From assembly GCA_903929655.1 (NCBI GenBank), contig CAIYVS010000746.1, positions 1 through 29,290 of the forward strand: 29,290 nt of DNA. The letters run 5' to 3'. Position numbers and translations under genes: made by a program. The stretch comes from an uncultured Bacteroidota bacterium (lineage in GTDB: Bacteria > Bacteroidota > Bacteroidia > Chitinophagales > Chitinophagaceae). The notes beneath the pieces are model-generated. The model worked only from the letters and a program-made list of their open reading frames with translations. It was not told the origin of the DNA and searched no databases. Of this stretch, positions 205 to 19,940 are shown one piece after another; the stretch's first letter is position 1; each line of letters opens with the position of its first letter.

Positions 205-1500
205 TTAATCCCATCTTTTCAAAACATCTTCCATTAGCGCTTTTATTTGGGCATTGCATAGATTGCCTATACTACCTTCATGTGTATGATGTAATGCCTC
301 CTTATAATTAAAAGTACCCTTCTCTACTTCATCCCCAACCTGTTTATATGCCTCCCTGAATGGGATTCCCTGGTTGACAAGAGCGTTTACCTTCTCTACT
401 GTAAAAAGGTATTTGTACTTTTCGTCATCGAGTATATTTTCTTTCACAATTATTTGCTCCAGCATGATGCAAGCCATTTGCAGGCATGACTTCAGTTCTT
501 CAATCGCCGGGAATAATATTTCTTTAGTAAGCTGCAGATCCCTATGATAACCTGAAGGAAGATTATTAACAAGCAAAGTAAGCTCATTAGGTATAGATTG
601 AATACGGTTGCATTTGGCACGAATAAGTTCAAACACATCGGGATTCTTTTTGTGTGGCATGATGCTGCTGCCGGTAGTTAAGGAAGCAGGAAAGCTTATA
701 AACCCAAAATTCTGATTCATAAACAGGATAACATCCATACTAAAACGGGATAAAGTAGCGCTGATAGAACTCATGGCCATTGCTACAAATCGTTCGGTCT
801 TACCCCTGCTCATCTGCGCATATACACTATTATAATGCAGGGAATTAAAATTAAGCAATTGTGTGGTAAGTGTTCTGTTAAGCGGGAAAGAGGAGCCATA
901 GCCTGCACCAGAACCCAGTGGGTTTTTATCAGCCATATGATATGCAGTGCCTAATAAATCCATATCATCTACCAAGCTTTCTGCATAGGCCCCAAACCAC
1001 AGGCCAAATGAAGATGGCATGGCGAGTTGCATATGGGTATAGCCCGGCAGCAACTTGTCTTTATGCGTTTCGCTGAGATGCAACAGGAGCTCAAACAATT
1101 TCAAAGATGCAATCTTGATTTCCAGTAATTGCTCTCTTAAATACAATTTTATATCAAGCGCAACCTGGTCATTACGGCTGCGGCCGCTATGTATCTTTTT
1201 CCCTGCATCCCCTATCTTTTCTGTAAGCATCAACTCTACCTGGGAATGTATATCCTCCACATCCTCCCTCAAAGAAAATTCGTCATTCTCTATATCGGCA
1301 AGAATATTGGTCAATTCATTCTTCAATATGCTAAAATCCGCCTCAGACAATAAACCCACACTTTGCAACATGGTGATATGTGCCAGCGAACCCAATACAT
1401 CATACTTGGCCAATATCATGTCGAACTCCCTGTCGCGACCGACAGTAAAATTTTCTATTATTGCTGATATCTCCGTATTTTCTTTCTGCCAGAGTTTCAT
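205..1500 (-). CDS. argH: Argininosuccinate lyase
   Basis: Fumarate-lyase signature GSSIMPHKKNPD, HSGRSRND and LPGYTHMQ motifs; last gene of the arg operon. Confidence 0.97.
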   Translation of the reverse strand: MKLWQKENTEISAIIENFTVGRDREFDMILAKYDVLGSLAHITMLQSVGLLSEADFSILKNELTNILADIENDEFSLREDVEDIHSQVELMLTEKIGDAGKKIHSGRSRNDQVALDIKLYLREQLLEIKIASLKLFELLLHLSETHKDKLLPGYTHMQLAMPSSFGLWFGAYAESLVDDMDLLGTAYHMADKNPLGSGAGYGSSFPLNRTLTTQLLNFNSLHYNSVYAQMSRGKTERFVAMAMSSISATLSRFSMDVILFMNQNFGFISFPASLTTGSSIMPHKKNPDVFELIRAKCNRIQSIPNELTLLVNNLPSGYHRDLQLTKEILFPAIEELKSCLQMACIMLEQIIVKENILDDEKYKYLFTVEKVNALVNQGIPFREAYKQVGDEVEKGTFNYKEALHHTHEGSIGNLCNAQIKALMEDVLKRWD

Positions 1501-2567
1501 AATATTTTGTTTAGCACTTCAATATAGGTATTGATACCTTCTCTTATCTCATCGGTGTATATAAATTCATCAGCAGTGTGACTACGGGCAGAATCACCAG
1601 GACCCATTTTCAATGCAGGAAATGGCATCAAAGCCTTGTCTGATAATGTGAGTGAGCCATAATATTTTAGTCCTGCCTGCATGCCGGATTTGATAATCGG
1701 GTGTTCAAGTGAAATAGAGGATGAACGCAATCTCATACTTCTTGCTTCCACATCACAATGTACATGCTGCCTGATTGTCTCCAGTATCTCTTCATGAGTA
1801 TAACATTCATTGATCCTGATATCGACAGTAAAGTGACATTCAGCAGGCACCATATTATGTTGTGTGCCGGCGTTTATCATAGTTACCGTCATTTTTACCG
1901 GACCCAGTAATGGAGAAGTTTTAGAGAACGTATAATTCTTAAACCAGCCCAAACAGTTCATTGCTTTGTAAATGGCATTGTCACCTTCATCCCGTGCGGC
2001 GTGTCCTGATTTCCCTTTACAAATGCAATCAACTACCATTAATCCTTTTTCTGCAATGGCCATTTCCATTTTGGTGGGTTCGCCTACTATTGCAAAATCT
2101 ATTTTACCCAGCTCAGGCAATAAAGCTTCTATTCCCTTATTCCCTGATATTTCTTCCTCAGCGCTTGCGGCAAACACCAGGTTATATTTCAGATCATCCC
2201 GATCATAAAAATGCAGGAAAACAGCCAGGAGAGAGACGAGGCTAGCCCCTGCATCATTAGAACCCAGGCCATAAAGTTTACCATCTTTTTCAAGAGCTGT
2301 AAAAGGATCCAGTGTATAATCTTTATTGGGCTTTACAGTATCGTGGTGTGAGTTTAAAAGAATAGTTGGCTTATTACTATCAAAATGTTTATTCACAGCC
2401 CATACATTATTAATGCATCTCTTCGACAATATATTCCTGCTGTTGAGGAATTGCTGAAGCGCAATAGCAGTTCCCTGCTCCTCTTTACTGAAAGAGGGGA
2501 TGCCTATAAGTTGCTTCAACAAACTTAGTGCATCATCATACAAGCTTGTAAATTCCTGCTTACTCAT
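1497..2567 (-). CDS. argE: M20 family deacylase (ArgE-like N-acyl-ornithine/citrulline deacylase; probably succinylcitrulline desuccinylase)
   Basis: M20 metal motifs SHHDTV, GLGSNDAG, AEEE, GEPT and C-terminal SHTADE. Lies between argB and argH with 4-nt start/stop overlaps. Confidence 0.85.
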   Translation of the reverse strand: MSKQEFTSLYDDALSLLKQLIGIPSFSKEEQGTAIALQQFLNSRNILSKRCINNVWAVNKHFDSNKPTILLNSHHDTVKPNKDYTLDPFTALEKDGKLYGLGSNDAGASLVSLLAVFLHFYDRDDLKYNLVFAASAEEEISGNKGIEALLPELGKIDFAIVGEPTKMEMAIAEKGLMVVDCICKGKSGHAARDEGDNAIYKAMNCLGWFKNYTFSKTSPLLGPVKMTVTMINAGTQHNMVPAECHFTVDIRINECYTHEEILETIRQHVHCDVEARSMRLRSSSISLEHPIIKSGMQAGLKYYGSLTLSDKALMPFPALKMGPGDSARSHTADEFIYTDEIREGINTYIEVLNKIL

Positions 2568-3349
2568 AATATACTTGTACCTCCGGTTCCTGCAAACAGT
2601 TTGTCAAATTCGGCCGCATGGCCTATAAGTACTTTTTTCACACCTTTCCTGATGGCTGCAAAAGCATTCTCCAGTTTGGGTATCATGCCGTCAGTAATAA
2701 TTCCTTGCAGTTTTATATCTTCAAAACTCTGTTCGTCAATCTTGCTGATCACTGAATCATCATTTACAGGATCGGTCAAAACACCTTTTTTCTCAAAGCA
2801 ATAGATCAATTGCACATCCATCAGGTCTGCCATACTTTTTGCAAGTTCCTGGGCAATGGTATCAGCATTCGTATTTAACATAGTCCCTGCCCCATCGTGT
2901 GTCAAAGGCGCGAAAACAGGTGTAAGGCCGCTTTCAAGTAACATCTTTAGAACTTTAGTGTTGACCTGTTCACTTTTCACATCCCCCACAAAACCATAAT
3001 CCACTTCTTTAACCGGCCTCCTGTTAGCCTCTATAAGATTTGCATCCGCGCCTGTAAGGCCAATTGCATTGCATCCCAAGGCCTGCAGCGAAGCAACTAT
3101 TTTTTTATTGATGGATCCCGCGTAGACCATCGTCACTAAATCCAAAGTAGCTGCGTCTGTTATGCGTCTTCCATTCACATAATTAGGTTCAATACCCAAT
3201 TTCTTCCCGATCTCGGTGGCAATCTTACCACCTCCGTGCACCAATATTTTATATCCTTTAACCGTAGCAAAAGACTTGAGAAAAGAAGTTAACTGCTTTT
3301 CGTCATCAATTATATTGCCGCCTATTTTCACTACTGCTAATTGTTGCAT
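2564..3349 (-). CDS. argB: N-acylglutamate kinase (short 261-aa form)
   Basis: VVKIGGN, LVHGGG, GRRITD, NTNADT and GMIPKL amino-acid-kinase motifs; arg operon context. Confidence 0.95.
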   Translation of the reverse strand: MQQLAVVKIGGNIIDDEKQLTSFLKSFATVKGYKILVHGGGKIATEIGKKLGIEPNYVNGRRITDAATLDLVTMVYAGSINKKIVASLQALGCNAIGLTGADANLIEANRRPVKEVDYGFVGDVKSEQVNTKVLKMLLESGLTPVFAPLTHDGAGTMLNTNADTIAQELAKSMADLMDVQLIYCFEKKGVLTDPVNDDSVISKIDEQSFEDIKLQGIITDGMIPKLENAFAAIRKGVKKVLIGHAAEFDKLFAGTGGTSIL

Positions 3350-4302
3350 GAGCCTCCCTTTATAATTTCAGCAAGTACTGCCTGTGCAGCCCATACCCTG
3401 TTGGACGCTTGTTGTGTAACAATGCTGTTGGTCCCGTCAAGTACCTCGTCACTCAGTTCTACATTTCTTCTTACCGGAAGACAATGCATTATTTTGGCAT
3501 TGTTGGTTCCCCGCAAATGTTCTGTGGTCAGCATCCAGCTATTGTCCTCGCTAAGCACTTTCCCATAATCTTTATAAGAGCTCCAGTTTTTTACGTAAAC
3601 AAAATCTGCGCCCTTCAATGCTTTTTCCTGGTCATATTCTATAGTGGCTCCTTTTGTAAATTGTTCATCCAGTTCATAGCCCTCCGGATGGGTGATATAG
3701 AAATCAGCCTTACCCCAGGCATTCACCCATTGAGCGAAAGAATTTGCAACACACTGAGGTATAGGTTTGATATGTGGCGCCCAGGTAAGTACAACCTTAG
3801 GCTTTGGCTTAATATCGGCAAATTCAGACATGGTAATAATGTCCGTGAGACTTTGTAAGGGATGTAAGGTTGCGCTTTCGAGGCTGACTACAGGCAGTCC
3901 GGCATATTTCATCAGTTGACTAACCAGCACTTCATTGTAATCATCCTCCCTGTTTAGCAGGGATGGAAATGTTCTGATGCAAAGAATATCAAAATACGCT
4001 CCGAATATGGGTGCGGCATCCTTTATATGTTCAACCGAAGTGCCGTTCATTACAGCTCCGTCTTCAAATTCCAGCTTCCAGCCCTCTTTATCCATATTAA
4101 AGACCACAGCCTCCATACCCAAATTGCGGGCGGCTATCTGTGTGCTTAAACGTGTACGCATACTGGGATTTAAAAACAAAAGCCCTATACGCTTGTTCTG
4201 TCCAAGCATTTTGTCTTTAAAAGGCGCAGCTTTATATGAAAGCGCTTGCTGTACCAAATGTTCTATATCAGGAACATCATAAACTGAGATAAAATTATTC
4301 AT
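3337..4302 (-). CDS. argF: N-acylornithine carbamoyltransferase (ArgF'; likely N-succinylornithine-specific)
   Basis: SMRTR carbamoyl-phosphate loop, HPLQ, TWAPH, KNW and HCLPVRRN motifs typical of the AOTCase/SOTCase clade rather than classical OTCase; Val at position 90. Confidence 0.92.
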   Translation of the reverse strand: MNNFISVYDVPDIEHLVQQALSYKAAPFKDKMLGQNKRIGLLFLNPSMRTRLSTQIAARNLGMEAVVFNMDKEGWKLEFEDGAVMNGTSVEHIKDAAPIFGAYFDILCIRTFPSLLNREDDYNEVLVSQLMKYAGLPVVSLESATLHPLQSLTDIITMSEFADIKPKPKVVLTWAPHIKPIPQCVANSFAQWVNAWGKADFYITHPEGYELDEQFTKGATIEYDQEKALKGADFVYVKNWSSYKDYGKVLSEDNSWMLTTEHLRGTNNAKIMHCLPVRRNVELSDEVLDGTNSIVTQQASNRVWAAQAVLAEIIKGGSCNN

Positions 4303-4326
4303 TTCTTCAGGACGGCATAAATTTGA

Positions 4327-5469
4327 TCAGGAATTATTATTTGCTAGTTCTGTTTTTATTGCATTAATTAATTTGTCAGCATCTTCTTTCTGAATATTCA
4401 AAGCAGGCAATAAGCGTATTACATTGGGCTTAGCTTCGCCTGTAAAAATATGTTGCTTGAACAAAAGATTTTTGCGCAGGTCTTTATATTGCGCAGGCAC
4501 ATCAAAACCAATCATTAAACCCCTGCCTCTAACATTCTCCAGTTCGGGAATATTACGCAGTTCCTGCATGATATAGTCACCCATATGATGCGCGTGAGAC
4601 AATAATGCTTCGTTTTCAATTACTTCCAACACTGCCAAAGCTGCTGCACAAGCAAGATGGTTTCCACCGAATGTGGTACCCAGCATGGAATATTTAGCTT
4701 CTATATGGGGAGCAATCAAAATCCCGCCAATAGGGAAACCATTACCCATTCCCTTTGCCATGCTATAGATGTCTGCATTCACCCCTGCATAGTCATGAGA
4801 GAAAAATTTACCGCTACGTCCGTAGCCACATTGCACACCATCTGCTATATATATAGCCCTGTGCTGTGTGCACAAGGCCCTTATCGCCTGTAAAAATTCT
4901 TCGCTCGCAAGGTTAATACCCCCCACGCCCTGTATGCCTTCTGTAATTACAGCAGCCACCTCATCTCCGTGATTGGAAAAATAGATGCTGAGACTATCTA
5001 CATCGTTGAAGGGAAGAAAAGTAATATTATCGGTTCTGTTCACCGGTGCAACTATCTGCTCATTATCTGTTGCAGCCACTGCAAGAGAAGTGCGGCCATG
5101 AAAAGATTTTGAAAAGGCAACGATCTTTTTCCGCCCTGTTACAAATGAAGCCAGTTTCATCGCGTTCTCATTTGCTTCAGCACCGGAATTGCAGAGGAAT
5201 AGTTGATAATCTTCTTTCCCGGAAATCTTCCCAAGCTTATCGGCCAATTCCACCTGCAAAGGAATTTTAATGGAATTGGAATAAAACCCGATCTTATTTA
5301 ATTGTTCGGTAATTCTATGAACATAATGCGGGTGTGTATGGCCAATGGATATTACCGCATGGCCGCCATAAAAGTCCAGGTATTCCTGTCCTTTATCGTC
5401 CCATACATAGGAGCCATTACCTTTGGTAATAGTTATATCATTAAGCGGATAAACGTCAAATAGTTTCAT
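4327..5469 (-). CDS. argD: N-acylornithine aminotransferase (class III PLP)
   Basis: YLDFYGG, FLCNSGAEANE, SFHGRT, DGVQCGYGRSG and the PLP-lysine motif AKGMGNGFP; operon context. Confidence 0.93.
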   Translation of the reverse strand: MKLFDVYPLNDITITKGNGSYVWDDKGQEYLDFYGGHAVISIGHTHPHYVHRITEQLNKIGFYSNSIKIPLQVELADKLGKISGKEDYQLFLCNSGAEANENAMKLASFVTGRKKIVAFSKSFHGRTSLAVAATDNEQIVAPVNRTDNITFLPFNDVDSLSIYFSNHGDEVAAVITEGIQGVGGINLASEEFLQAIRALCTQHRAIYIADGVQCGYGRSGKFFSHDYAGVNADIYSMAKGMGNGFPIGGILIAPHIEAKYSMLGTTFGGNHLACAAALAVLEVIENEALLSHAHHMGDYIMQELRNIPELENVRGRGLMIGFDVPAQYKDLRKNLLFKQHIFTGEAKPNVIRLLPALNIQKEDADKLINAIKTELANNNS

Positions 5470-5478
5470 CGTATATTA

Positions 5479-6465
5479 TTAAAAAGAACTCGCTTTTAAT
5501 TGTAAGCCTGTTTGCTCTGCCAAACCAAATATTAAATTCATATTCTGCACTGCCTGCCCTGATGCACCTTTCAATAGGTTGTCTATGGCGGAGTGGATGA
5601 CTAATTTGTCGTCCACTTTTTCCAGATGAATGAGGCATTTATTAGTATTTACCACCTGTTTCAGGTCAATCATTTCCTTACTGACATGTGTAAATGGATG
5701 TTCTTTATAATAAGAGCTATATAAATCATAAGCAGCCTCCAGGCTCAGATCAGATGGTGTATAAGAGCTGACATAGATACCTCTTGCGAAATCCCCCCTC
5801 CATGGAATGAAATTTACATTGGCAGGCTGCGCTTGTAATTGCTGAATGCTTTGCATGATCTCATTCATATGCTGATGAGATAATGATTTGTAAGCCTGCA
5901 CATTGTTTACACGCCAGGAGAAATGAGAGGTTTCCTGCAATTTTTGCCCTGCGCCTGTGGAACCTGTAATGCCTGTGGTATGCACATCTTTCAATAAACC
6001 TGCTTTGGCAAGCGGCAATACGCCCAATTGAATGGCGGTTGCAAAACAACCGGGATTGGCAATATTCCGGGCTTGCTGTATTTGCTCTTTGTTAAGTTCA
6101 GGCAAGCCATATACAAATTGCCTGCCTGCAAAGGCTGCACTCTTTACCAGCCTGAAATCCTGCGAAAGATCAATGATCTTTATTTTTTCATCTATTTTAT
6201 TTGATTCCAGGAAGGTCTTTGCTTCTCCATGCCCTACGCAGAGAAAAAGCATATCTATATTACTATTGAGCTCTGAACTAAAATGAAGATCAGTCTCCCC
6301 AAGCAAGTCTCCATGAACCTTATGCACAGGCTGACCGGCATTGCTCCTGCTATGAACAAATACAATATCCGCGTTGGGATGGCGCAAAAGTATCCGCAGC
6401 ATTTCACCGCCTGTATAACCGGCCCCGCCAACAATGCCCACCTGTATTTTAGTACTAATGCTCAT
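5479..6465 (-). CDS. argC: N-acyl-gamma-glutamyl-phosphate reductase
   Basis: GIVGGAGYTG Rossmann motif, catalytic NPGCFAT, TGSTGAG and IDNLLKGASGQAVQNMN. Confidence 0.97.
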   Translation of the reverse strand: MSISTKIQVGIVGGAGYTGGEMLRILLRHPNADIVFVHSRSNAGQPVHKVHGDLLGETDLHFSSELNSNIDMLFLCVGHGEAKTFLESNKIDEKIKIIDLSQDFRLVKSAAFAGRQFVYGLPELNKEQIQQARNIANPGCFATAIQLGVLPLAKAGLLKDVHTTGITGSTGAGQKLQETSHFSWRVNNVQAYKSLSHQHMNEIMQSIQQLQAQPANVNFIPWRGDFARGIYVSSYTPSDLSLEAAYDLYSSYYKEHPFTHVSKEMIDLKQVVNTNKCLIHLEKVDDKLVIHSAIDNLLKGASGQAVQNMNLIFGLAEQTGLQLKASSF

Positions 6466-6475
6466 TTCTTAAATA

Positions 6476-7690
6476 TCAGTTTTCCTGCTGAATTGCCTGT
6501 GTTATGTCTTTATTAATTAAATGATAAATCCCTACCTGGTTGCCGAATATCTTGGCAAATCCTTTTACATCATCTCCAGTCCAGCCATTATTCATTTCCC
6601 CATAGGAACCGAATTTGCTGTTCATAAGATCATGTTCGCTTTCTATACCGGTAACAGTGAAGCGGTAAGGCTCCAATGTAACAAACACTTTGCCACTAAC
6701 AGTTTTCTGTGAGTCTTCCAGGAAGCACTCTATATTACGCATGGTAGGGTCCAGCATCATGCCTTCATGCAGCCAGTTGCCATACCAGGAGCTTAACTGG
6801 TCTTTCCAGTATAATTGCCACTTGGTTAAAGTATGTTTTTCAAGCAGGTGGTGGGCTTTGATGATGATTAACGGTGCAGCGGCTTCAAAACCAACGCGTC
6901 CTTTAATTCCGATGATCGTATCGCCTACATGTATGTCCCTGCCTATGCCATAGGGCTGGGCGACAGACTGCAGATATTGTATAACTTCTACCGGGTGCGA
7001 AAAAATAGTTCCATCAACACCTTTCAATTCTCCTTTTTCGAAATGCAGTTCTATATTCTTCCTGCCTGTTTCTGTAACTTGTGTGGGCCAGGCAGTTTCT
7101 GGTAAATATTCTTTACTGTTAAGCGTTTCCTTACCACCAACCGAAGTTCCCCATAAGCCCTTATTAATGCTGTACCTGGCCTTCTCAAAATTCATCTCCA
7201 CTCCATTTGCCTTCAGGAAACTGATCTCTTCTTCACGGCTCAGTTTCATATCCCTTATCGGGGTTATAATGCCAATACCGGGTATCATACTTTGAAAAAC
7301 CATATCAAAACGCACCTGGTCGTTGCCCGCACCTGTGCTGCCATGGGCCACAAAATCTGCATTCACAGATTTTGCATATTCCGCTACGGAAATAGCCTGT
7401 ATCATACGCTCGGCACTCACACTCAGGGGATATGTAGCGTTTTTCAGCACATTGCCATATACCAGGTATTTAATGCAACTCTCATAATACTCCTTCATCA
7501 CATCCACTACTTTGAAGGAAGCAACCCCAAGATCGTAAGCCCGCGCTTCTATTTTTTTAAGGTCATCCTCACTAAAGCCACCTGTTTGCACGGTAATGGC
7601 ATGCACTTCCAATTGCTCAACCCTGGAAAGATAAATGGCGCAGTAGGTTGTATCTAGGCCCCCGCTATATGCTAATACTACTTTTTTCAT
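6476..7690 (-). CDS. argG: Argininosuccinate synthase
   Basis: VLAYSGGLDT PP-loop, HGSTGAGNDQVRF and GIKGRVGFEA motifs. Confidence 0.97.
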   Translation of the reverse strand: MKKVVLAYSGGLDTTYCAIYLSRVEQLEVHAITVQTGGFSEDDLKKIEARAYDLGVASFKVVDVMKEYYESCIKYLVYGNVLKNATYPLSVSAERMIQAISVAEYAKSVNADFVAHGSTGAGNDQVRFDMVFQSMIPGIGIITPIRDMKLSREEEISFLKANGVEMNFEKARYSINKGLWGTSVGGKETLNSKEYLPETAWPTQVTETGRKNIELHFEKGELKGVDGTIFSHPVEVIQYLQSVAQPYGIGRDIHVGDTIIGIKGRVGFEAAAPLIIIKAHHLLEKHTLTKWQLYWKDQLSSWYGNWLHEGMMLDPTMRNIECFLEDSQKTVSGKVFVTLEPYRFTVTGIESEHDLMNSKFGSYGEMNNGWTGDDVKGFAKIFGNQVGIYHLINKDITQAIQQEN

Positions 7691-7697
7691 TATTAAA

Positions 7698-8396
7698 TCA
7701 GATGTATTTTAATATGCTTGCGTACAAAGCAAAAATGGATAAGACAAAATGATTCCTTTTAAAATTCCTCAAAAACCTGAACTGCTTTAAACGCAACAGA
7801 CGTTCATAGACTTTTTGCTTGTTTACAAAAGCTGCTGTTGTTTCCTCGGGCTTATAATGGTCTTTAGGGTCATACAGCATAGCTGTACAAAGGCAGTTTT
7901 TACGCCCTTTGCTCATCAGTATATCATAATTCACACAGCTTTTGCAGCCCTGCCAGAAAGCCTCGTCCTGGGTAAGCTCGGGGTAGGTCACAGGTTCATA
8001 TCCAAGCTCACTGTTAATTTTCATTACAGCAAGGCCTGTAGTTAAACCAAAAATCTTTGCTTCCGGATATTTTTCCCGGCTCAGATCAAAAATTCTCTTT
8101 TTGATCTGCTTTGCAAGTCCGCTTTTTCTGAACTCCGGCACTACAATAAGGCCTGAATTGGCTACGTATTCGCCATCACTCCAGCTTTCTATATAACAAA
8201 AGCCTGCCCACCTGCCATCTGGGGCAAGAGCTATAACGGCTTTACCTTCCAGCATTTTGGTCTGCAAATATTCAGGTGTGCGTTTTGCTATACCCGTGCC
8301 CCGAGCTTTTGCAGATTCCTCCATTTCCGTGCATATATCAATCGAAAAACCTGTATGGCGCTTATCCGCCACCATAACTTTAAAGCCTTGGCTCAT
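7698..8396 (-). CDS. GNAT-family acyltransferase, probable Bacteroidota-type N-acylglutamate synthase (ArgA role)
   Basis: GNAT motif A (VANSGLIVVPEFRKSGLA), IAKRTPEY, FWQGCKSC and CLCTAMLYDP. First gene of an operon that otherwise lacks argA/argJ. Confidence 0.8.
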   Translation of the reverse strand: MSQGFKVMVADKRHTGFSIDICTEMEESAKARGTGIAKRTPEYLQTKMLEGKAVIALAPDGRWAGFCYIESWSDGEYVANSGLIVVPEFRKSGLAKQIKKRIFDLSREKYPEAKIFGLTTGLAVMKINSELGYEPVTYPELTQDEAFWQGCKSCVNYDILMSKGRKNCLCTAMLYDPKDHYKPEETTAAFVNKQKVYERLLRLKQFRFLRNFKRNHFVLSIFALYASILKYI

Positions 8397-8512
8397 TTTT
8401 ACTAAATAATTAAAGAATAAATAATACCATCGCTTCCATTTAAAATGAAAGCATTGTAAACGAAGGTTATAAAAACCTCTTCAACAGGAAAAGCTGTTGG
8501 AATAACTTGGTA

Positions 8513-8641
8513 TCAACGTCGCACCCGGAAGAACACTTGCTTGTAAGAAAAAACTGTCCTTTCGGAAACAGCAAAAAAACCTGAACCGGAGCACATTTGT
8601 GCGTCGTGACTGGCCGGTAGCATTAAAAAGGTTTTTTTCAT
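8513..8641 (-). CDS. Putative leader peptide of the arg operon, 42 aa: MKKTFLMLPASHDAQMCSGSGFFAVSERTVFSYKQVFFRVRR
   Basis: Manually translated; below the ORF-track cutoff. ATG lies about 40 nt downstream of a promoter-like element, has an A-rich upstream context, and 3 of the last 4 codons are Arg (CGG GTG CGA CGT TGA). Confidence 0.5.
   Translation of the reverse strand: MKKTFLMLPASHDAQMCSGSGFFAVSERTVFSYKQVFFRVRR
8548..8638 (-). promoter_or_regulatory. Structured leader RNA / attenuator-like hairpins upstream of the arg operon
   Basis: Perfect 10-bp A7CCU/AGGU7 stem (8629-8638 with 8573-8582) enclosing ACCGG/CCGGU and GCAC/GUGC helices, then a bulged GAAA-loop hairpin (8554-8571) followed by U6. 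Confidence 0.55.
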
Positions 8642-8686
8642 TTCGTTATTTGGTTAGGAAATAAACGGTTAATTTTTTAAAGGATG

Positions 8687-8719
8687 CAAAGTAAAAGAAT
8701 TTTTATATAACAAATCAAA
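8687..8719 (-). promoter_or_regulatory. Bacteroidota sigma-ABfr-type promoter for the arg leader/operon
   Basis: -33 TTTG (8719-8716), a 21-nt spacer, and a near-consensus -7 element TTACTTTG (8694-8687; consensus TAnnTTTG, one mismatch). Confidence 0.5.
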
Positions 8720-8863
8720 TGTTTTTTGTTAAAAACAAAAAATTAATACACGCTTCATTTAGAAAAATCCCGGTAGCTACCCTTAATGCCTTAGTATCCA
8801 ACACTTATGTCAAAGAACTTCTCTACAAGCTATTTGACTGGGCAGGAAACAGAAAGTAAAAGC

Positions 8864-8893
8864 ATGTTAAAGCTGCAAGCCTACATTTAACAT
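8864..8893 (-). terminator. Probable terminator of the upstream GH92 gene
   Basis: ATGTTAAA/TTTAACAT 8-bp inverted repeat enclosing a small inner stem, 16 nt after the GH92 stop, followed on the - strand by GCTTTTACTTTC. Confidence 0.45.
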
Positions 8894-8909
8894 TTTGCCC
8901 TTAAAAGCG

Positions 8910-11219
8910 CTACCTGTAGAGCTTTTTGTTAGGTTTTGCGCCCATATAGAAAACCAATTCTCCGCCCTTCATGATGTCGGAATGTGTGATATAATTATGT
9001 TCCAGCACTTGCCCATTGAGGAGTATCTTTTGCACATAAACATTCTGATCGCTTTGACCTAGGGCTTTTATAGTAAATGTCTTGCCATTCTCTAAGTGAA
9101 CCAGGGCTTCTTTTACCGAGGGGCTTCCCAGTGAATACCTGTCGGAACCGGGCGCAACCGGATAAAAGCCCAATGCGCTGAAAATATACCAGGCGCTCAT
9201 TTGCCCGCAATCATCATTGCCACTTAATCCGCCAGGTGTAGGGAGATACATTTTCTTCAGTATCATCCGCACTTTTTCCTGCGTCTTCCAGGGCTCGTTG
9301 GTCCAGTTATAGAGATAGGCAATATGGTGCGAAGGCTCATTGCCATGCACATAATTGCCAATAATGCCATCTCTTGTTATATCCTCTGTCTCCTCAAAAA
9401 ATTTATCGGGTAGCTGCATGCTAAACAGGGAATCCAGGTGAGCGACAAAACGTTTTTTACCTCCCATCATTTTTATCAGTTCATCAGGTGCATGTGGCAC
9501 ATACAGACTATAATTCCAGGCATTGCCCTCTATAAAACCGGGCTCATCCGTATTTAAAACATTAAAGTCTTTCTTGAAAGTACCATCACTCAATTTAGGA
9601 CGCATAAAGCCTGCGGAAGGATCATACACATTCTTATAGTTCTCAGAACGTCGAATAAATTCATCATAAATATCCTTCCTGTTCAGTTTTTTTGCCATCT
9701 GGGCAATACACCAATCATCGTAGGCATATTCCAGCGTCTTTGAAACAGAGGACGAATTTTTATCTTCCGGCACATAGCCCATACTCATATAATACCCCAG
9801 GCCATCATAATTTTTATGCGTAGCAGTTGCCACACAGGCATCCAGGGCATGATTTGCATCAAAATGCACATTGCCTTTTACTACAGCATCGGCAATTACA
9901 GATACACTATGGTAACCGATCATGCACCAATTCTCATTGGCATAATGCGACCATATGGGCAGCATATGATGTACACTTTGGTCATAGTGCGCCAACATAG
10001 AACTAATCATATCTGAATTTCTCCTGGCCTGGATGATATTAAATAAGGGGTGTAACGCGCGATGGGTATCCCAGAGAGAAAAGGTGGTATAATTAATAAA
10101 TCCATCTGCCATATGCACTTGTTGGTCCAGGCCTTTGTATGTGCCTGTATCGTCCATATAAATTGTGGGACTTATAAAAGCATGGTACATAGAGGTGTAA
10201 AAAGTCTCCATTTCCTCCTTACGGTCCGATTGAATTTGTATTTTTTCCAATTCCCGCTCCCATTGCGCCTGTCCTGCTTCTTTCACTTTTTCAAAGTCCC
10301 AGCCAGGTATTTCTGAATACAGGTTTTCCAAAGCATAATGAGTGCTGACAGGAGACAAAGCCAGCTTGATTTTGATCTTCTCCCCTTCCCCCGTTTTGAA
10401 ATTAAAATAAGCCCTTATCTGCGTCCCTGCCATTTCAGGAAAGTTTTTATCCATTTTAAATTTTCTCCAGAAGCCTCTATATACCTCTTTCTTCGAATTA
10501 TCCTGAAAACCATAATCTGTGAAGGGTTTTGAGAATGCCATCGCAAAATATACGGTACGGTTCCTGGCCCAGCCGTTTGTTTGCCTGTAGCCTGTAATCA
10601 AAGAATCATTCTCTACTCTTATATATGTCCAGACATTTTTGTCCGGGTAGTTATAGATACCATACATCATGTCCAGGATAATATGGGCATCGTCGGATTT
10701 GGGGAATGTGTATTGATGAAAACCTACCAGGCTGCTAGTGGTGAGCTCGGCAATAATATTATGGTCTTCCAGTTTCACTTTGTAATAGTCAGGTTCTGCT
10801 ACCTCGGTACTATGTGAGTAAGCAGAGCGATAGCCGTTTTCAGGGTGATCTGCCGTACCGGGGTTTAATTGTAAAGTTCCGGTTGTGGGCATTATCAGAA
10901 AATCTCCCAGATCAGAATGCCCGGTGCCGCTAAAATGCGTATGAGTAAATCCTACAATAGTTTTATCATCATACTGGTAACCAGCGCAATATTTATAGAC
11001 ATCTTTATTGTATTTGCCATTTATCTCATAAGGAATGGTATCTGTTTCAGGGCTTAACTGTACCGCACCAAAAGGCACTGTAGCGCCGGGATAAGTATGT
11101 CCCATTTTTTGAGTACCTATAAGCGGGTTTACATAGTCAATTAGTTTTTTCGCCTGTTTGTCTTGTGCCATACAAGCAGAACCGGCAAATAGTAGTATAA
11201 TATTTATAAATTGTCGCAT
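8910..11219 (-). CDS. GH92 alpha-mannosidase, secreted
   Basis: YVNPLIGT, HTYPGATVPFG, FSLWDTHR, EGNAW, HGNEPSHH and GNDDCGQMSAW motifs. Start moved to ATG 11219, which gives a signal peptide (MRQFINIILLFAGSACMA|Q). Confidence 0.93.
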   Translation of the reverse strand: MRQFINIILLFAGSACMAQDKQAKKLIDYVNPLIGTQKMGHTYPGATVPFGAVQLSPETDTIPYEINGKYNKDVYKYCAGYQYDDKTIVGFTHTHFSGTGHSDLGDFLIMPTTGTLQLNPGTADHPENGYRSAYSHSTEVAEPDYYKVKLEDHNIIAELTTSSLVGFHQYTFPKSDDAHIILDMMYGIYNYPDKNVWTYIRVENDSLITGYRQTNGWARNRTVYFAMAFSKPFTDYGFQDNSKKEVYRGFWRKFKMDKNFPEMAGTQIRAYFNFKTGEGEKIKIKLALSPVSTHYALENLYSEIPGWDFEKVKEAGQAQWERELEKIQIQSDRKEEMETFYTSMYHAFISPTIYMDDTGTYKGLDQQVHMADGFINYTTFSLWDTHRALHPLFNIIQARRNSDMISSMLAHYDQSVHHMLPIWSHYANENWCMIGYHSVSVIADAVVKGNVHFDANHALDACVATATHKNYDGLGYYMSMGYVPEDKNSSSVSKTLEYAYDDWCIAQMAKKLNRKDIYDEFIRRSENYKNVYDPSAGFMRPKLSDGTFKKDFNVLNTDEPGFIEGNAWNYSLYVPHAPDELIKMMGGKKRFVAHLDSLFSMQLPDKFFEETEDITRDGIIGNYVHGNEPSHHIAYLYNWTNEPWKTQEKVRMILKKMYLPTPGGLSGNDDCGQMSAWYIFSALGFYPVAPGSDRYSLGSPSVKEALVHLENGKTFTIKALGQSDQNVYVQKILLNGQVLEHNYITHSDIMKGGELVFYMGAKPNKKLYR

Positions 11220-11315
11220 TGGGCAAACATTGTAGCTGTCTGGTTTTAAATGTAACAATAATTATCTGTCAATTTAAAATCTGCTCTTTGTATCTTGCAA
11301 AAACAAAGATCAAAA

Positions 11316-12257
11316 ATGACAGAACCATTAGCGCTCGGCATTGATATAGGCGGAACAAAAACGGCTTTCGGCCTGGTGAACAGGGAAGCGAAAATAGTAT
11401 TAAATGGCAGCATACCCACTACAGGGCATGGTGCTGTAGAGCAGTATGTTATGGCATTGAAAGAAGCCATCGAACCTATTTTAGAGCAGGCAGGAAAAAA
11501 TAATATTATAGGCGGCGGCGCAGGAGCGCCGAATGGCAATTATTATACAGGAGAAATCATGTTTGCCCCAAACTTACCCTGGCATGGCGTTATCCCTTTA
11601 GCTAAACTTTTATCAGATGCACTCGGAATTAAAATAAAGCTCAACAATGATGCTAATGCTGCCGCAATCGGAGAAATGACTTATGGAGTGGCAAAAGGCA
11701 TGAAGGATTTTATATTGGTTACCCTTGGCACAGGTGTAGGCAGCGGGTTTGTTGCTAACGGGCAATTGATATACGGGCATGACGGCTTTGCAGGGGAACT
11801 GGGACATGTCATTGCAGTGAGAGACGGGAGGAAATGCGGTTGCGGGCGTAATGGTTGTCTTGAAACCTATGCATCGGCAACCGGAGTTGTACGCACTGCC
11901 GAACAATGGCTTGAAGAAAGGAGTGATGCTACTTTATTAAGAGAACTCAAAGGCAAAATAACATCCGAAACTATATTTGAAGCTGCAGAAAAAGGAGACG
12001 TGTTTGCCCTTGAAATATTTGATTATACAGCAAAGATATTAGGACAAACCCTGGCCGATATGGTAGCCATCACATCACCACAAGCCATTATTTTCTTTGG
12101 CGGACTTTCCCAGGCAGGAGATATACTATTGAAGCCTGTGAAAAAATATATGGAAGAAACTATGCTGAACATTTTTAAGAACAAAGTGGCCATTTTACAA
12201 TCAGCCTTCAGCGACGCCAATGCAGCTATACTGGGAGCCAGTTCTATGGCATGGTAA
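11316..12257 (+). CDS. ROK family sugar kinase (glucokinase-like)
   Basis: GIDIGGT ATP loop, NNDANAAA, GELGH and the zinc motif CGCGRNGCLE. No N-terminal HTH, so a kinase rather than a repressor. Start set to ATG 11316 (ORF track starts at 11295). Confidence 0.92.
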   Translation: MTEPLALGIDIGGTKTAFGLVNREAKIVLNGSIPTTGHGAVEQYVMALKEAIEPILEQAGKNNIIGGGAGAPNGNYYTGEIMFAPNLPWHGVIPLAKLLSDALGIKIKLNNDANAAAIGEMTYGVAKGMKDFILVTLGTGVGSGFVANGQLIYGHDGFAGELGHVIAVRDGRKCGCGRNGCLETYASATGVVRTAEQWLEERSDATLLRELKGKITSETIFEAAEKGDVFALEIFDYTAKILGQTLADMVAITSPQAIIFFGGLSQAGDILLKPVKKYMEETMLNIFKNKVAILQSAFSDANAAILGASSMAW

Positions 12258-12258
12258 T

Positions 12259-12290
12259 GATTTGACAACTTTTCGAGAAGTTGTCAAATC
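12259..12290. terminator. Bidirectional hairpin terminator between the convergent ROK and GH125 genes
   Basis: Perfect 13-bp inverted repeat GATTTGACAACTT-ttcgag-AAGTTGTCAAATC filling the 40-nt gap between two stop codons. Confidence 0.75.
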
Positions 12291-12297
12291 TGGCTCT

Positions 12298-13716
12298 TTA
12301 TGCAAGCAGATGCGGCCTTTCCCGGTAAACCTTCCAAACAAACTCACCAAACAAAGTATTGGCCCAGGCAAACCATGAACGGGTAAATTTGGTTGCATCA
12401 TCTTTGTAAAACGACTCATGCATAAAACCTGTACCTGCATGTGTATGTTGCAAAGTGTCAAGGCAGTACTTTACTTCCTTATCATCATTGCTTGTTAAAC
12501 CACGCATAATGATACTCATAGGCCATATATAATCCATGCCTACATGCGGCCCACCGCCGCCTTCTGCAACCTTGCCTTTAAAGAAAAAGGGATTATCTTC
12601 CGACAAAACATATTTCCGGGTATCCTGGCAAACTTCGTCATCTTTCATCAGGGGTATTAAATACTGCAATGACAAAAGCGATGGAATATTGGCATCATCC
12701 ATCAGGTTAAAACTTCCGAATCCATTCACTTCATAAGCATATATCTCACCAAATTTTTCAGTCTTGATTTTAGCATTTTGGTCCAGGCCATTGTTTATTT
12801 GTTTTACAAGTGCATCTATTTCAGACGTATCCAGCTTACTTTTTACATTACCCGCAATGACAGACAACTGCATCAGAGAATGCATAGCAAAGAAATTACT
12901 TGGTATTAAATATGGATAGATGGTGGCATCATCGCTTGGTCTGAACATAGAGCAGATCAAACCATTAGGTTTTACCGGGTTGCCATAGCCATTCATCGGC
13001 AGCGTATCTGTTGAACTGGTTGTGCGTCGTTGGAAACTATAAGGTCCATGACCATCAAAACGCTGTTGTTCCTTAAATGTTTTAATGACCAGTTTCATAG
13101 CCTCAAACCACTCTTCATCAAATGCAGAACTGTCTCCTGTTGTTTCCCAGTAACCATATGCCAGGCGAATAGGATAACACAAACTATCCACTTCCCATTT
13201 GCGTTCATGTATGCCACGCCGCATTTCGGTATTGTCCTTATGCCATTCGCTCAGCTTATGCTCATTCTTATAAAATGCATTGGCGTAGGGATCCCTGATA
13301 ATACATTTTGCCTGCCTGTGGATGACACCTTTAATTAATTGTTGTAAGTCTTTATCTTCTTTGCACAATGGCAAATAGGGCCATACCTGGGCAGATGAAT
13401 CCCTGAGCCACATGGCATCTATATCGCCTGTAATCACGTAGGTATCCGGCTTACCATCTATCATATCAAAATCAACGGTGGTATCCAGTGTATTAGGGAA
13501 ACAGTTCTCAAACATCCAGCCTATCTCTTTATTACCAATGTTCTTTTTCACTTCAGCTATCACTTTTTCCACTGCTTTGCTCTTAAACCTTCTTTTCTTT
13601 TCTTCTATACGCACTACCGGGAAAACGGCATTGCTGCTTTTGCTGAAAGAATAGGGAGCGATCAAAACACCAGCAGCTACCAGCGAGGATTGAGCAATAA
13701 AACGCCTTCTGTTCAT
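12298..13716 (-). CDS. GH125 exo-alpha-1,6-mannosidase, Tat signal
   Basis: CFPNTLDTT, ITGDIDAMWLRDS, ERKWEVDSLC, MDDANIPSLL and FTRSWFAWAN motifs; N-terminal MNRRRF twin-arginine leader. Confidence 0.93.
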   Translation of the reverse strand: MNRRRFIAQSSLVAAGVLIAPYSFSKSSNAVFPVVRIEEKKRRFKSKAVEKVIAEVKKNIGNKEIGWMFENCFPNTLDTTVDFDMIDGKPDTYVITGDIDAMWLRDSSAQVWPYLPLCKEDKDLQQLIKGVIHRQAKCIIRDPYANAFYKNEHKLSEWHKDNTEMRRGIHERKWEVDSLCYPIRLAYGYWETTGDSSAFDEEWFEAMKLVIKTFKEQQRFDGHGPYSFQRRTTSSTDTLPMNGYGNPVKPNGLICSMFRPSDDATIYPYLIPSNFFAMHSLMQLSVIAGNVKSKLDTSEIDALVKQINNGLDQNAKIKTEKFGEIYAYEVNGFGSFNLMDDANIPSLLSLQYLIPLMKDDEVCQDTRKYVLSEDNPFFFKGKVAEGGGGPHVGMDYIWPMSIIMRGLTSNDDKEVKYCLDTLQHTHAGTGFMHESFYKDDATKFTRSWFAWANTLFGEFVWKVYRERPHLLA

Positions 13717-13802
13717 AGCTTAAATGTATAAAGAACTTAGATATAAACATACAAGCTTCTGAAAAGGTAAACTTATAGTATATTTAATCCAAACATGGAA
13801 AA

Positions 13803-16043
13803 ATGACTGCTTCTGCAATAAGAAAATACTGCTCCGTAATTATAGTATGTTTTTCATTTATAACACCTTCTACCCACGCTCAAAACCTCACCCGCTATGT
13901 AAACCCATTCATAGGTACAGGCGGGCACGGGCATACTTATCCCGGTGCTACCGTTCCTTTTGGCATGGTGCAATTAAGCCCCGATAATGGCTCTGAGGGC
14001 TGGGACTGGTGCAGCGGATATAATTACAGCGATTCTACCATAGCAGGCTTCAGCCATATGCATCTTAGCGGTACAGGCTGTGGCGACTGGACAGATATCT
14101 CCGTTATGCCCAATACAGGACTTTTCCCGGATACCGGCAGGTTCTTTAAAGTAAAATTCAGCCATACGAATGAAAAAGCAAGCCCTGGTTATTATAGTGT
14201 AAAATTGGACAATGGCATTGAAGCCGAATTGGCCGCGACTGAAAGATGTGGTTTTCACAAATATACCTTCCCTGCAAATTGTAAACCTGTTATCCGTTTT
14301 GATCTTGGTTACAATATTAATTATGACGAACCCATGGAGACCTCTTTACAAAAGATAGATGATTCCACCATTGTCGGATACCGTTATTCAAAAGGCTGGG
14401 CGCAGGTGCAGAAAGTTTATTTCGCAGCGCGTACTTCTGTCCCATTCAGCAAGTTATACTTTTCAGAAAAACAAAAAGACAATGAGTCGGGCCTAAAAGC
14501 AAAAATGGTAAGGGGCCAGTTAATATTTGAAAATGCTGCGGGTAAAACCATTATGATGAAAGTGGCATTATCTACCGTCAACACCAATAAAGCTTTGCAA
14601 AACTTAAATGAGATAAAGGGCTGGGACTTTAACAAAGTAAGAACTGATGCTGAACAAAAGTGGGAAACAGAGCTGGAAAAGATACAGATCAATACCACAG
14701 ATAATAACCTAAGAACCATATTTTATACGGCGCTCTACCATACCTGTATGGCTCCTGTATTATACTCCGATCCTGACGGCTACTACAAAAATGCAAAAGG
14801 GAATGTCTTAAAAATGAAGAAGGGACAGCGTTATACTGTTTTCTCATTATGGGATACCTTCCGGGGACTGAACCCTTTATTTACCATAACACAAACCGGA
14901 AGGGACCTGGATATATTGAACAGCATGTTAGCCTTTTGCGATGAGAATGGCCTTTTACCTGTCTGGGACCTCAGCACTTTCGAAACAAATTGCATGAGCG
15001 GTTACCATGCGGTGCCGGTGCTGGCAGATGCGGTGCTGAAAGATTTTCCCGGACTGGATGCGGAACGTGCTTATGAGGCCATGAAAAAAAGCGCCTTCCA
15101 AACCATGAGGGGCATACCCTTTTATATTCAATATGGCTATATACCGCAGGATAAAATGGGACAAAGCGTTACTTATACTTTGGAATATGCCTATGACGAC
15201 TGGTGTATAGCACAAGTGGCAAAAAAATTAGGCAAGACAGAAGACTATAAACTTTTTATGAATAGGGCCAATGCATACACATTGCTCTTTGACAAAAAAA
15301 CGGGTTTTATAAGAGGCAAAAATGCAAACGGCGATTGGGTTTTGCCTTTCGACCCTTATGTATCTACTGTTGTGGAAGGGCAGTCTATGTATGAAGAAGG
15401 GAATGCATGGCAGTACACTTTTTTTGTTCCTCACGATGTAAGAGGCCTTGCTAAAGAATATGGCAACTATGATAAATTCATACAAAAATTGGATTCTCTC
15501 TTCACAGTTTCCTCTGAGGTAAAAGGCGAGAACAAACCGCCTGATGTAAGCGGCCTCATAGGCCAATACGCTCATGGCAACGAGCCAAGTCACCATATTG
15601 CCTATATGTATGATTTTGTAGGCGCACCCTGGAAAACACAGCAGAAGATCAGGATGATCGTAGATTCCATGTACCATAATAATATGGACGGATATGCAGG
15701 CAATGAAGATTGCGGGCAGATGAGCGCATGGGCCATCTGGAGCATCATGGGTTTTTATCCTGCAAATCCTGCAGGCGGAGAATATGTTTTTGGCAGCCCA
15801 ATGCTGGATGATGTATCCATCAAATTAGCAGGCAATAAGACCATGCACATAAAGACTATCAATAACGCCAAGAACCATCCATATATACAGGCTGTAACAT
15901 TGAATGGCAAACCTTATACAAAGGTGTATATAGATCACTCTACATTAATGCAGGGCGGTGAAATGGTCTTTACAATGGGTGAGCAAGCCAATAAAAAATG
16001 GGGCCAGAATAAAGAAGACTGGCCAGCATCTGTGCACAATTAA
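13803..16043 (+). CDS. GH92 alpha-mannosidase, secreted
   Basis: YVNPFIGTGGHGHTYPG, FSLWDTFR, EEGNAWQY, GQYAHGNEPSHH and GNEDCGQMSAW motifs; signal peptide ending THA|Q. Confidence 0.95.
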   Translation: MTASAIRKYCSVIIVCFSFITPSTHAQNLTRYVNPFIGTGGHGHTYPGATVPFGMVQLSPDNGSEGWDWCSGYNYSDSTIAGFSHMHLSGTGCGDWTDISVMPNTGLFPDTGRFFKVKFSHTNEKASPGYYSVKLDNGIEAELAATERCGFHKYTFPANCKPVIRFDLGYNINYDEPMETSLQKIDDSTIVGYRYSKGWAQVQKVYFAARTSVPFSKLYFSEKQKDNESGLKAKMVRGQLIFENAAGKTIMMKVALSTVNTNKALQNLNEIKGWDFNKVRTDAEQKWETELEKIQINTTDNNLRTIFYTALYHTCMAPVLYSDPDGYYKNAKGNVLKMKKGQRYTVFSLWDTFRGLNPLFTITQTGRDLDILNSMLAFCDENGLLPVWDLSTFETNCMSGYHAVPVLADAVLKDFPGLDAERAYEAMKKSAFQTMRGIPFYIQYGYIPQDKMGQSVTYTLEYAYDDWCIAQVAKKLGKTEDYKLFMNRANAYTLLFDKKTGFIRGKNANGDWVLPFDPYVSTVVEGQSMYEEGNAWQYTFFVPHDVRGLAKEYGNYDKFIQKLDSLFTVSSEVKGENKPPDVSGLIGQYAHGNEPSHHIAYMYDFVGAPWKTQQKIRMIVDSMYHNNMDGYAGNEDCGQMSAWAIWSIMGFYPANPAGGEYVFGSPMLDDVSIKLAGNKTMHIKTINNAKNHPYIQAVTLNGKPYTKVYIDHSTLMQGGEMVFTMGEQANKKWGQNKEDWPASVHN

Positions 16044-16055
16044 TATACTAGGACC

Positions 16056-18686: not shown

Positions 18687-19225
18687 CCGGGACATTCATC
18701 GGATGGAGATAATCCTTCTTTGTCTTTTGTCAGTATAGCTTTGCCATCTTTAAATGTGATGATCCATATACTGTCAAAATCATTATCATCCCATTTCAGG
18801 GCAGGGTCTTTTATACCCAGGGCGTGTACAATACCTGATATGGCATGGTGTTCCCACACTACCAGCACGGTGCCCTTTTTCGCTTTGATGTCCTTTGCTA
18901 TCTGCAGGGTATCCTTGTTTGCATATTTGCTATTCAGGACAAGATTATACTTTACAGCCATGGGTGTAGCAGTCTCAAACATACGGGCATGTTTTGTGCC
19001 CTTCTTCATTTCCAAAACAGGCACATAGGTATAATCGGGCACACCAAATTTATCATGTAATACTTTGGGCAATTGCAAGGCCCGGTTCAGCCCCTTACAG
19101 GTAAGATTATCGCCTTTTTCCGGCTTTTCGCCATGACGGATAAATACCACTTTGAGATCAGTTTGAGAGAAAACCGGGCTGAAAGCAAGGACGCTAAGAA
19201 CGAGTATGAATAATTGTTTTTTCAT
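18683..19225 (-). CDS. Secreted histidine phosphatase superfamily protein
   Basis: FIRHGEK catalytic motif, later LVVWEH, and signal peptide MKKQLFILVLSVLAFSPVFS|Q. Confidence 0.8.
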   Translation of the reverse strand: MKKQLFILVLSVLAFSPVFSQTDLKVVFIRHGEKPEKGDNLTCKGLNRALQLPKVLHDKFGVPDYTYVPVLEMKKGTKHARMFETATPMAVKYNLVLNSKYANKDTLQIAKDIKAKKGTVLVVWEHHAISGIVHALGIKDPALKWDDNDFDSIWIITFKDGKAILTKDKEGLSPSDECPG

Positions 19226-19329
19226 AACCCGCGAAGTTCTCTTTCTTGTGTGAACTGAATATTAAATCTGGCTTTGTGTCAAGCGTAAAATATACCGTCC
19301 CTATCGGGCAATGCTAAGATCCACCCTAC

Positions 19330-19791: not shown

Positions 19792-19940
19792 TTTAGTATG
19801 CCTGTTTATGTTTCATTTTCATCCTCCCTGCAATATATCCTGAAATGAGCGGGAAGGACATTGATAAAAGGTATAAAGATTTATTAAATTGTGCTGAAAT
19901 TATATAAATAAACCAAGCTTCTGAAATTAATTTGCCTGTA

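Follow-up and report, generated by a model that had tools for sequence, protein, structure and literature searches.

A candidate arginine-sensing leader gene upstream of the arginine biosynthesis operon in Bacteroidota

What adjusts arginine biosynthesis to arginine supply in bacteria in which no arginine repressor is found? Arginine biosynthesis is a textbook case of control by the ArgR repressor. The arginine operon considered here lies in the window (the whole stretch of DNA that was analyzed, 29,290 nt from an uncultured Chitinophagaceae bacterium), and the initial annotation had pointed out that argR is missing from it. Domain searches upheld this: neither PF01316 nor PF02863 was found in the window or in its genome, which is 89.75% complete. 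The C-terminal domain of ArgR was found in 0 of 61 Chitinophagales genomes; control genomes, including that of Bacteroides thetaiotaomicron, gave matches. Between a promoter-like element and the operon lies a short ORF ending in Arg codons, for which arginine-dependent ribosome stalling or attenuation had been proposed. The locus is laid out as follows.

8687-8719, minus strand: promoter-like element, with TTTG at 8719-8716 and 8714-8711 (-33-like) and TACTTTG at 8693-8687 (-7-like); direct reading.
8513-8641, minus strand: leader ORF, 42 codons plus stop; direct reading, with a homologous ORF in 75 distinct loci.
8525-8527, minus strand: first Arg codon, CGG, the second-rarest Arg codon in the genome (7.2%); sequence and codon usage.
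8511-8521, minus strand: 11-mer CGACGUUGAUA, comprising CGA (the rarest Arg codon), CGU, the UGA stop, and then UA; invariance and codon usage.
205-8396, minus strand: the operon proposed to be regulated, in the order GNAT-like gene, argG, argC, argD, acetylornithine-type carbamoyltransferase gene, argB, argE, argH.

Read directly from the sequence, the leader ORF runs on the minus strand from an ATG at 8641 to a TGA at 8515-8513 and encodes an unannotated 42-residue peptide, MKKTFLMLPASHDAQMCSGSGFFAVSERTVFSYKQVFFRVRR (MKKTFL...FFRVRR). Its last sense codons are CGG GTG CGA CGT, three of the four encoding Arg and each of these by a different CGN codon, exactly as the initial annotation had described for a frame ending in RVRR. 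The distance that it had given to the first arg gene is also correct: the spacer between the leader stop and the ATG at 8396 is exactly 116 nt (8512-8397). That first gene (7698-8396, minus strand) encodes 232 aa, and its GNAT label is backed by weak matches, all of them below threshold (E about 0.002); no Pfam or NCBIfam cut-off was reached. Its product is probably the pathway's unnamed N-acyltransferase, and the gene is conserved over Bacteroidota families with 53-78% identity. A second in-frame ATG, Met8, lies at 8375-8373 and may be the true start, because many relatives' proteins align only from residue 5-8; in that case, the spacer would be 137 nt.

We take the promoter-like element to correspond to the -33 TTTG and -7 TAnnTTTG elements of Bacteroidota sigma-A promoters, with an approximate fit (TACTTTG) that makes it a candidate promoter. 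In the window's clade (alignment A1), the 3′ portion of this element, CTTTGCAT, is conserved. Directly upstream of it is a glycoside-hydrolase cluster (8910-21788), unrelated to the arg leader, whose members include a GH92 gene ending at 8910 and a ROK kinase gene at 11295-12257.

An ORF of this kind alone is not significant in AT-rich DNA, and we judged it not to be a chance frame because it is conserved. At the DNA level (blastn), the leader gave only chance-level matches in 60 related genomes, and relatives were therefore sought through the neighboring first-gene protein. An Arg-rich-tailed frame ending 85-145 nt upstream of the first gene was present at 26 of 30 loci from related genomes, and the tails at these 26 loci, each followed by the stop, included RVRR, HVRR, RRPRI, PRPRRGC, and SYRRRR. 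Species-representative genomes, when scanned, supplied a further 80 loci from Chitinophagaceae, Flavipsychrobacter, Puia, Ferruginibacter, and Agriterribacter among them, and the two sets together yielded 75 distinct Chitinophagaceae loci with a leader like the window's, referred to below as the long class. Throughout this class the ATG is invariant, the ORF mostly has 41-44 codons (some 50-64), and it ends in V/I/L-R-R-stop. No in-frame stop occurs in the ORF frame across the 75 loci, compared with 169 and 101 in the other two frames; all 75 sequences are open in the ORF frame vs. 2 and 16 in the others. Length differences preserve the frame, including insertions of 9-37 codons, and the body of the peptide is highly variable. 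When four leader peptides were looked up by exact sequence, one was found under the annotation "hypothetical protein" and three were absent from the protein collection.

As a chance control, we pooled 82 loci from the order and from a phylum-wide sample and collected ORFs that start with ATG, encode 8-90 aa, and end 60-160 nt upstream. Arg was the residue doubled within the last seven positions at 47 of the 82 loci, Pro at 10, Leu at 9, and other residues at fewer. Taken with the counts in relatives (26 of 30 loci, and 75 in the long class), this strongly bears out the conservation of the ORF and its Arg tail. Other Bacteroidota families have shorter Arg-tailed leaders.

Another Bacteroidota family, f45 (L226, L230, L235, L237, L240, L242, L244-L248, L250-L253, L256-L258, L260, L261), has a conserved arg leader of 21-22 codons that ends about 80-100 nt before the same first gene. 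An Arg-rich tail is present at 20 of 20 f45 loci and has the form (R/F)(I/V)PRRR-stop at 15; CGG CGG CGG occurs in 18 of the 20 tails, and most of the leaders read MQ...AHRI...R(I/V)PRRR-stop. Loci of a further sampled family, f26 (L221, L224, L225, L229, L231-L233), mostly have no Arg-tailed ORF by the criteria used, three others (L228, L234, L238) have F-R-R-(P/T) tails with CGT CGC, and ArgR was found in 0 of 10 f26 genomes. In a Chitinophagaceae metagenome-assembled genome (L071), the leader ORF has 79 codons, with four tandem 11-codon repeats (YGRPAPxANDF) before a GVRR tail; every repeat contains a CGA-CCN Arg-Pro pair.

The end of the ORF is constrained at the level of codons. At 74 of the 75 loci of the long class, CGACGTTGATA (Arg, Arg, stop, and TA) is the same letter for letter, without a single synonymous substitution; the Val codon before it is GTA at some loci and GTG at others. 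Arg38 and Pro39 are conserved as well, with unconstrained third codon positions (entropy about 1.9 bits). Of the Arg codons in the genome, CGA is used least (5.2%) and CGG second least; in the first arg gene at these 75 loci, CGA again has the smallest share (7.9%). The tRNA-Arg genes found in the genome have the anticodons ACG, CCG, and UCU, so that CGA and CGU would both be read by the same inosine-carrying tRNA-Arg(ACG). Reading of CGA by I:A wobble is inefficient pairing. Among the Chitinophagales short-class tails listed, all have CGA followed by CGN, with a third Arg codon and a stop codon that differ from locus to locus. Every leader class contains Arg-Pro pairs.

Judged by sequence, fixed rare Arg codons at the very end are what a sensor of hungry codons would require. 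Such sensing does not, by itself, call for the total invariance of CGU-UGA-UA. No other copy of the 11-mer was found in the genome on either strand, and a search for an intramolecular pairing partner gave duplex energies, upstream and downstream, equal to those of shuffled controls. Three further ideas were tried and rejected. Stop-codon read-through into an extended frame was one: the median distance to the next in-frame stop is 13 codons, the same as in the other frames. The others were a hairpin presenting CGACGUUGA in its loop and a CCC/GGG mini-hairpin, both of which are often pairable and show almost no double-sided covariation.

Upstream of the Arg codons, the ORF contains RNA features of its own.

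8630-8638, minus strand: A-run plus CC, codons 2-4, 5′ strand of candidate helix P1; centroid fold and RNAalifold consensus on A1.
8573-8581, minus strand: GG plus U-run 1 (7 U; U-run 8579-8573), the 3′ side of candidate P1; located class-wide about 65 nt ahead of the stop.
8554-8571, minus strand: hairpin B, CUGUUU / GGACAG with loop CCGAAA; covariation on 65 sequences.
8548-8553, minus strand: U-run 2 (U6), right after hairpin B and 25 nt upstream of CGA; terminator- or pause-like module.

Candidate helix P1 allows no covariation test, because both strands are invariant. Hairpin B is the sole class-wide consensus helix inside the ORF: compensatory changes occur in all six of its pairs, 92.8% of cells are paired across the 65 sequences, and its covariation score was reached by 0 of 500 shuffles. 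The two U-runs keep fixed distances from the stop in the long class (about -65 and -40, about 25 nt apart), and the Phe codons of U-run 2 strongly prefer TTT over TTC. Hairpin B and U6 together are the best-supported terminator-like element of the leader. They cannot be controlled by the Arg codons, because they lie 25 nt upstream of them.

The features predicted between the stop codon and the first gene are the following.

8508-8515, minus strand: UGAUACCA, which a ribosome held at CGA/CGU would cover and which would form the 5′ strand of long-range helix P0; spacer MFE fold and clade duplex energies.
8482-8499, minus strand: hairpin C, CAACAG / CUGUUG; spacer MFE fold, with arms conserved in clade alignment A2.
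8463-8479, minus strand: hairpin D, GAGGUU / AACCUU; some compensatory changes in A1.
8432-8452, minus strand: hairpin E, GCUUUCAUU / AAUGGAAGC; predicted folds.
8422-8429, minus strand: UGGUAUUA, 3′ strand of P0; spacer MFE fold and clade pairing.
8404-8421, minus strand: U-rich tract after P0, UUUAUUCUUUAAUUAUUU; the clade likewise has such a tract behind the P0 site or hairpin E.

The window's clade is represented by 18 distinct sequences, 12 of them taken from a metagenome pattern scan. In this clade, 8515-8508 would pair with 8429-8422 to form P0, enclosing hairpins C, D, and E and followed by the U-rich tract. The two strands covary within the clade: the P0 duplex of a member's own sequence averages -8.9 kcal/mol compared with -6.9 for swapped stop regions and is the better one in 13 of 18 cases (p=0.014, a value that overstates the support because the 18 sequences are related). 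The best P0 pairing site lies 29-45 nt before the AUG in 16 of the 18 members. When the whole leader and the gene start of the window are folded together, P0 is absent from the MFE fold, and the support for this predicted helix in the window's clade is therefore moderate. Across the whole long class, the P0 energies of own sequences equal those of swapped or reversed controls, and against these controls the stop region showed no helix with the spacer that would hold class-wide. A consensus terminator scan found none in the window's spacer. A hairpin with an immediate U-rich tract occurs in the spacer at 36% of long-class loci vs. 12% of shuffles, an enrichment that stops well short of universal presence. 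The sole terminator-like site near the leader in the consensus scan is inside the first gene after Met8 (8355-8372, minus strand; GTGGCG..CGCCAT followed by ACAGGTTTTT).

These observations give good support to reading the leader as a putative ribosome-stalling arginine sensor, in line with the arginine-dependent stalling or attenuation first proposed: the ORF and its Arg tail are conserved, and no ArgR was found. What we infer from this comparison is that the ORF is translated, that ribosomes stall on it, and how stalling leads on to expression of the operon. Our preferred account, which we hold to be rather likely, is that the leader is a translated cis-regulatory gene and that stalling at its Arg codons lifts termination in the spacer and turns the arg operon on. 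Ribosomes would translate the 42-codon ORF and reach first CGG and then the CGA-CGU pair just before the stop, and their dwell time at these rare codons would report the supply of charged tRNA-Arg. With arginine scarce, the ribosome would dwell there and shield the next 15 nt or so, with the stop codon and UGAUACCA among them; with arginine plentiful, it would terminate and leave the stop-proximal RNA bare. In the window's clade, the bare strand could then pair with UGGUAUUA 80 nt downstream and close a three-hairpin domain before the U-rich tract. The closed P0 domain would be the OFF state, in which transcription ends within the 116-nt spacer, either intrinsically or aided by Rho. A ribosome whose A site holds CGA would sit over the 5′ strand of P0 and block pairing, and RNA polymerase, by this proposal, would therefore enter the operon. 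The switch must depend on dwell time, because the positions of a stalled and a terminating ribosome differ by only 3-6 nt. By analogy with pyrBI, hairpin B and U6 are probably an arginine-independent pause or termination checkpoint that polymerase would pass only with a ribosome close behind.

The output of the sensor may be Rho dependent instead, as in tnaC/speFL. On this reading, the sensor is the same, the bare C-rich, G-poor RNA after the stop loads Rho, transcription ends in the 100- to 140-nt spacer, and a ribosome at CGA-CGU masks the site. We regard it as a serious rival, since such RNA adjoins the stop and a rho gene is present in the genome, while thinking it rather unlikely overall. 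At 74 loci, base composition is 33% C and 6% G over the first 15 nt after the stop and 30% C and 21% G over the following 15 nt; the C-rich stretch is unpaired in the MFE fold of most long-class loci and is followed by two or three hairpins and then by an A/U-rich stretch. The length of the spacer and the lack of a canonical spacer terminator at most loci also agree with Rho. However, the stretch with more C than G spans only about 30 nt, shorter than typical rut sites, before the hairpins begin, and in the PRPRRGC short class the stop lies inside a hairpin arm instead. Two equally scoring matches to the Rho RNA-binding domain (contigs C724:1255-1473 and C719:1176-1397 of genome G000) could reflect a duplicated assembly, strain heterogeneity, or two rho genes.

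A further possibility is a programmed arrest of the ribosome. In its simpler form, which seems to us quite unlikely, the tail (R-P-x-P-F-W/R-V-R-R) and CGA-CGU-UGA-UA would program a sequence-specific arrest through the nascent chain and I:A wobble and might sense free arginine, in the manner of the fungal AAP or TnaC, and not tRNA charging alone. Such an arrest is worth considering because the 11-mer is invariant and the Arg-Pro motifs are conserved. It would account for the conservation of Arg38 and Pro39 in spite of freely varying third positions, for an invariant 11-mer with no RNA pairing partner found, and for the Arg-Pro pairs in all classes, including the relative with four CGA-CCN repeats. 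The window's own peptide fits poorly, its tail being KQVFFRVRR with no R-P-x-P; the remaining peptide is highly variable, and the CCC/GGG mini-hairpin can explain part of the P-F-W-V conservation. Moreover, a stall at high arginine would have the wrong sign for a biosynthetic operon unless it also promoted termination. An elaborated form strikes us as unlikely, if a little less so: the 11-mer and the Arg-Pro tail would make up a programmed arrest module in which the switch is set by the inosine-wobble codon pair with the nascent chain, or by a 9-nt loop read by a trans-acting factor or tRNA, and which, with the in-ORF terminator checkpoint, would form a two-stage attenuator of a design undescribed for any amino acid.

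Stalling at the Arg codons might also act after transcription, remodeling the spacer so as to expose the A/U-rich start of the first gene or protecting the mRNA, with no transcription termination involved. Bacteroidota start sites have no Shine-Dalgarno sequences and depend on unstructured A-rich RNA, a setting that would suit such control, as would the lack of canonical spacer terminators at most loci, and some loci have UAUCA-type sequences complementary to UGAUA near the start codon. We consider it very unlikely, because the complementarity between stop and start regions is not consistent and because constrained folding of the window left pairing of the start region unchanged with and without a stalled ribosome (0.48 vs. 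0.51). Least credible, to the point of being highly improbable, is that the leader is not a translated sensor at all but a structured noncoding RNA or protein-binding site with a chance open frame, or a small protein with its own function: hairpin B and the U-runs could be features of the RNA or DNA, CGACGUUGA could form a 9-nt loop on a 3-4 bp stem, and one relative's peptide is annotated as hypothetical, but the frame is open in 75 of 75 loci (vs. 2 and 16) with an invariant ATG and frame-preserving indels, the enrichment is specific to Arg across families with unrelated sequences, the peptide body is too variable for a folded protein, and the loop-closing stem lacks double-sided covariation.

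We compared the preferred reading, a stalling-based arginine sensor, with known systems. The classical leader-peptide transcription attenuators are trpL, hisL, leuL, thrL, pheL, and ilvL. As far as we found, attenuation of this type has been described for Trp, His, Leu, Thr, Phe, and Ile/Val, and no case was found for Arg. The arg leader resembles these attenuators in having a short ORF between a candidate promoter and an amino acid operon, cognate codons clustered near its end, predicted hairpins with a U-rich tract downstream, and a stop codon beside RNA predicted in the window's clade to pair elsewhere. It differs in its amino acid, in its long ORF (42 codons) with only two to three regulatory codons at the very end that are fixed as rare, and in that the best-supported terminator-like hairpin is inside the ORF, upstream of these codons. 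A clear terminator/antiterminator pair is not general here, and since these features are not clear-cut, the leader is not a clean member of the class. No Rfam model matches it: a cmscan of 8000-9300 at E up to 10 returned four chance matches, far below gathering scores. No arg leader peptide in Bacteroidota is described in the literature that we searched, which, together with the Rfam result, is consistent with the suggestion that the mode of regulation is undescribed. For Flavobacterium psychrophilum, hisG, ilvE, and Trp (Bacteroid-trp) leaders have been noted (PMC9723704, supplement). To the initial annotation, our analysis adds the fixed CGA-CGU-UGA-UA, the rare-codon usage, the covarying in-ORF hairpin, the clade-specific long-range helix, and a distribution complementary to that of argR.

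Other leaders share single elements with this one. The E. coli pyrBI leader ORF has about 44 codons, read-through requires a ribosome close behind the polymerase, and UTP is sensed via polymerase pausing. The pyrBI ORF runs through a terminator hairpin with U-runs upstream, much as the arg leader ORF runs through its terminator-like hairpin B; unlike pyrBI, which has no regulatory codons, the arg leader has a putative Arg-codon sensor downstream of its in-ORF hairpin. In the Salmonella speF leader (orf34), Arg codons reportedly read arginine supply, and the leader is said to block Rho-dependent termination. The tnaC/speFL leaders have, as proposed for ours, a stall site at or next to the stop and then a long spacer with C-rich, G-poor RNA. 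However, they control catabolic or polyamine genes through conserved sensor peptides that bind small molecules, whereas the conserved feature here is Arg codons and a role for Rho is hypothetical. Under arginine limitation, ribosomes slow down at rare Arg codons of the Staphylococcus aureus leader peptide rbfL, which controls the downstream gene in this way: the leader occludes the adjacent ribosome binding site and represses a biofilm regulator (PMC13009471). In our case, by contrast, 116 nt separate the leader from the next start codon, and the arg operon, as the target, should be induced.

The fungal arginine attenuator peptide (AAP; arg-2/CPA1 uORF), to which the leader had initially been likened, works without Arg codons, sensing free arginine through its conserved nascent sequence and halting the ribosomes that scan the mRNA. 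The likeness stands as an analogy, both being upstream ORFs of an arginine-pathway gene with stalling at the end (here proposed). It goes no further: the leader has neither AAP-like logic nor a recognizably similar peptide, the body being variable, the Arg codons invariant, and the window peptide free of R-P-x-P. Since the Arg codons are the conserved feature, the leader would sense charged tRNA rather than free arginine.

If this reading is right, a ribosome-based arginine sensor replaces ArgR across large parts of Bacteroidota and explains how the pathway is regulated in abundant soil and water bacteria. The leader would also be a small gene for annotators to call, and its fixed CGA (read by I:A wobble) and in-ORF terminator-like hairpin would offer a natural system for codon-specific stalling and transcription-translation coupling in which initiation does without a Shine-Dalgarno sequence. 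The known alternative, the ArgR/AhrC regulon, has this operon as its target and responds to the same physiological signal. Of 151 Bacteroidota genomes sampled evenly, 65 have ArgR and 59 have a homologue of the first arg gene; only 2 of these 59 clearly have ArgR. In both, argR (G088:C10:12711-13502 and G181:C6:85392-86234) is directly upstream of the first gene, at 60-100 nt and on the same strand, with no Arg-tailed leader; it occupies the position that the leader takes elsewhere.
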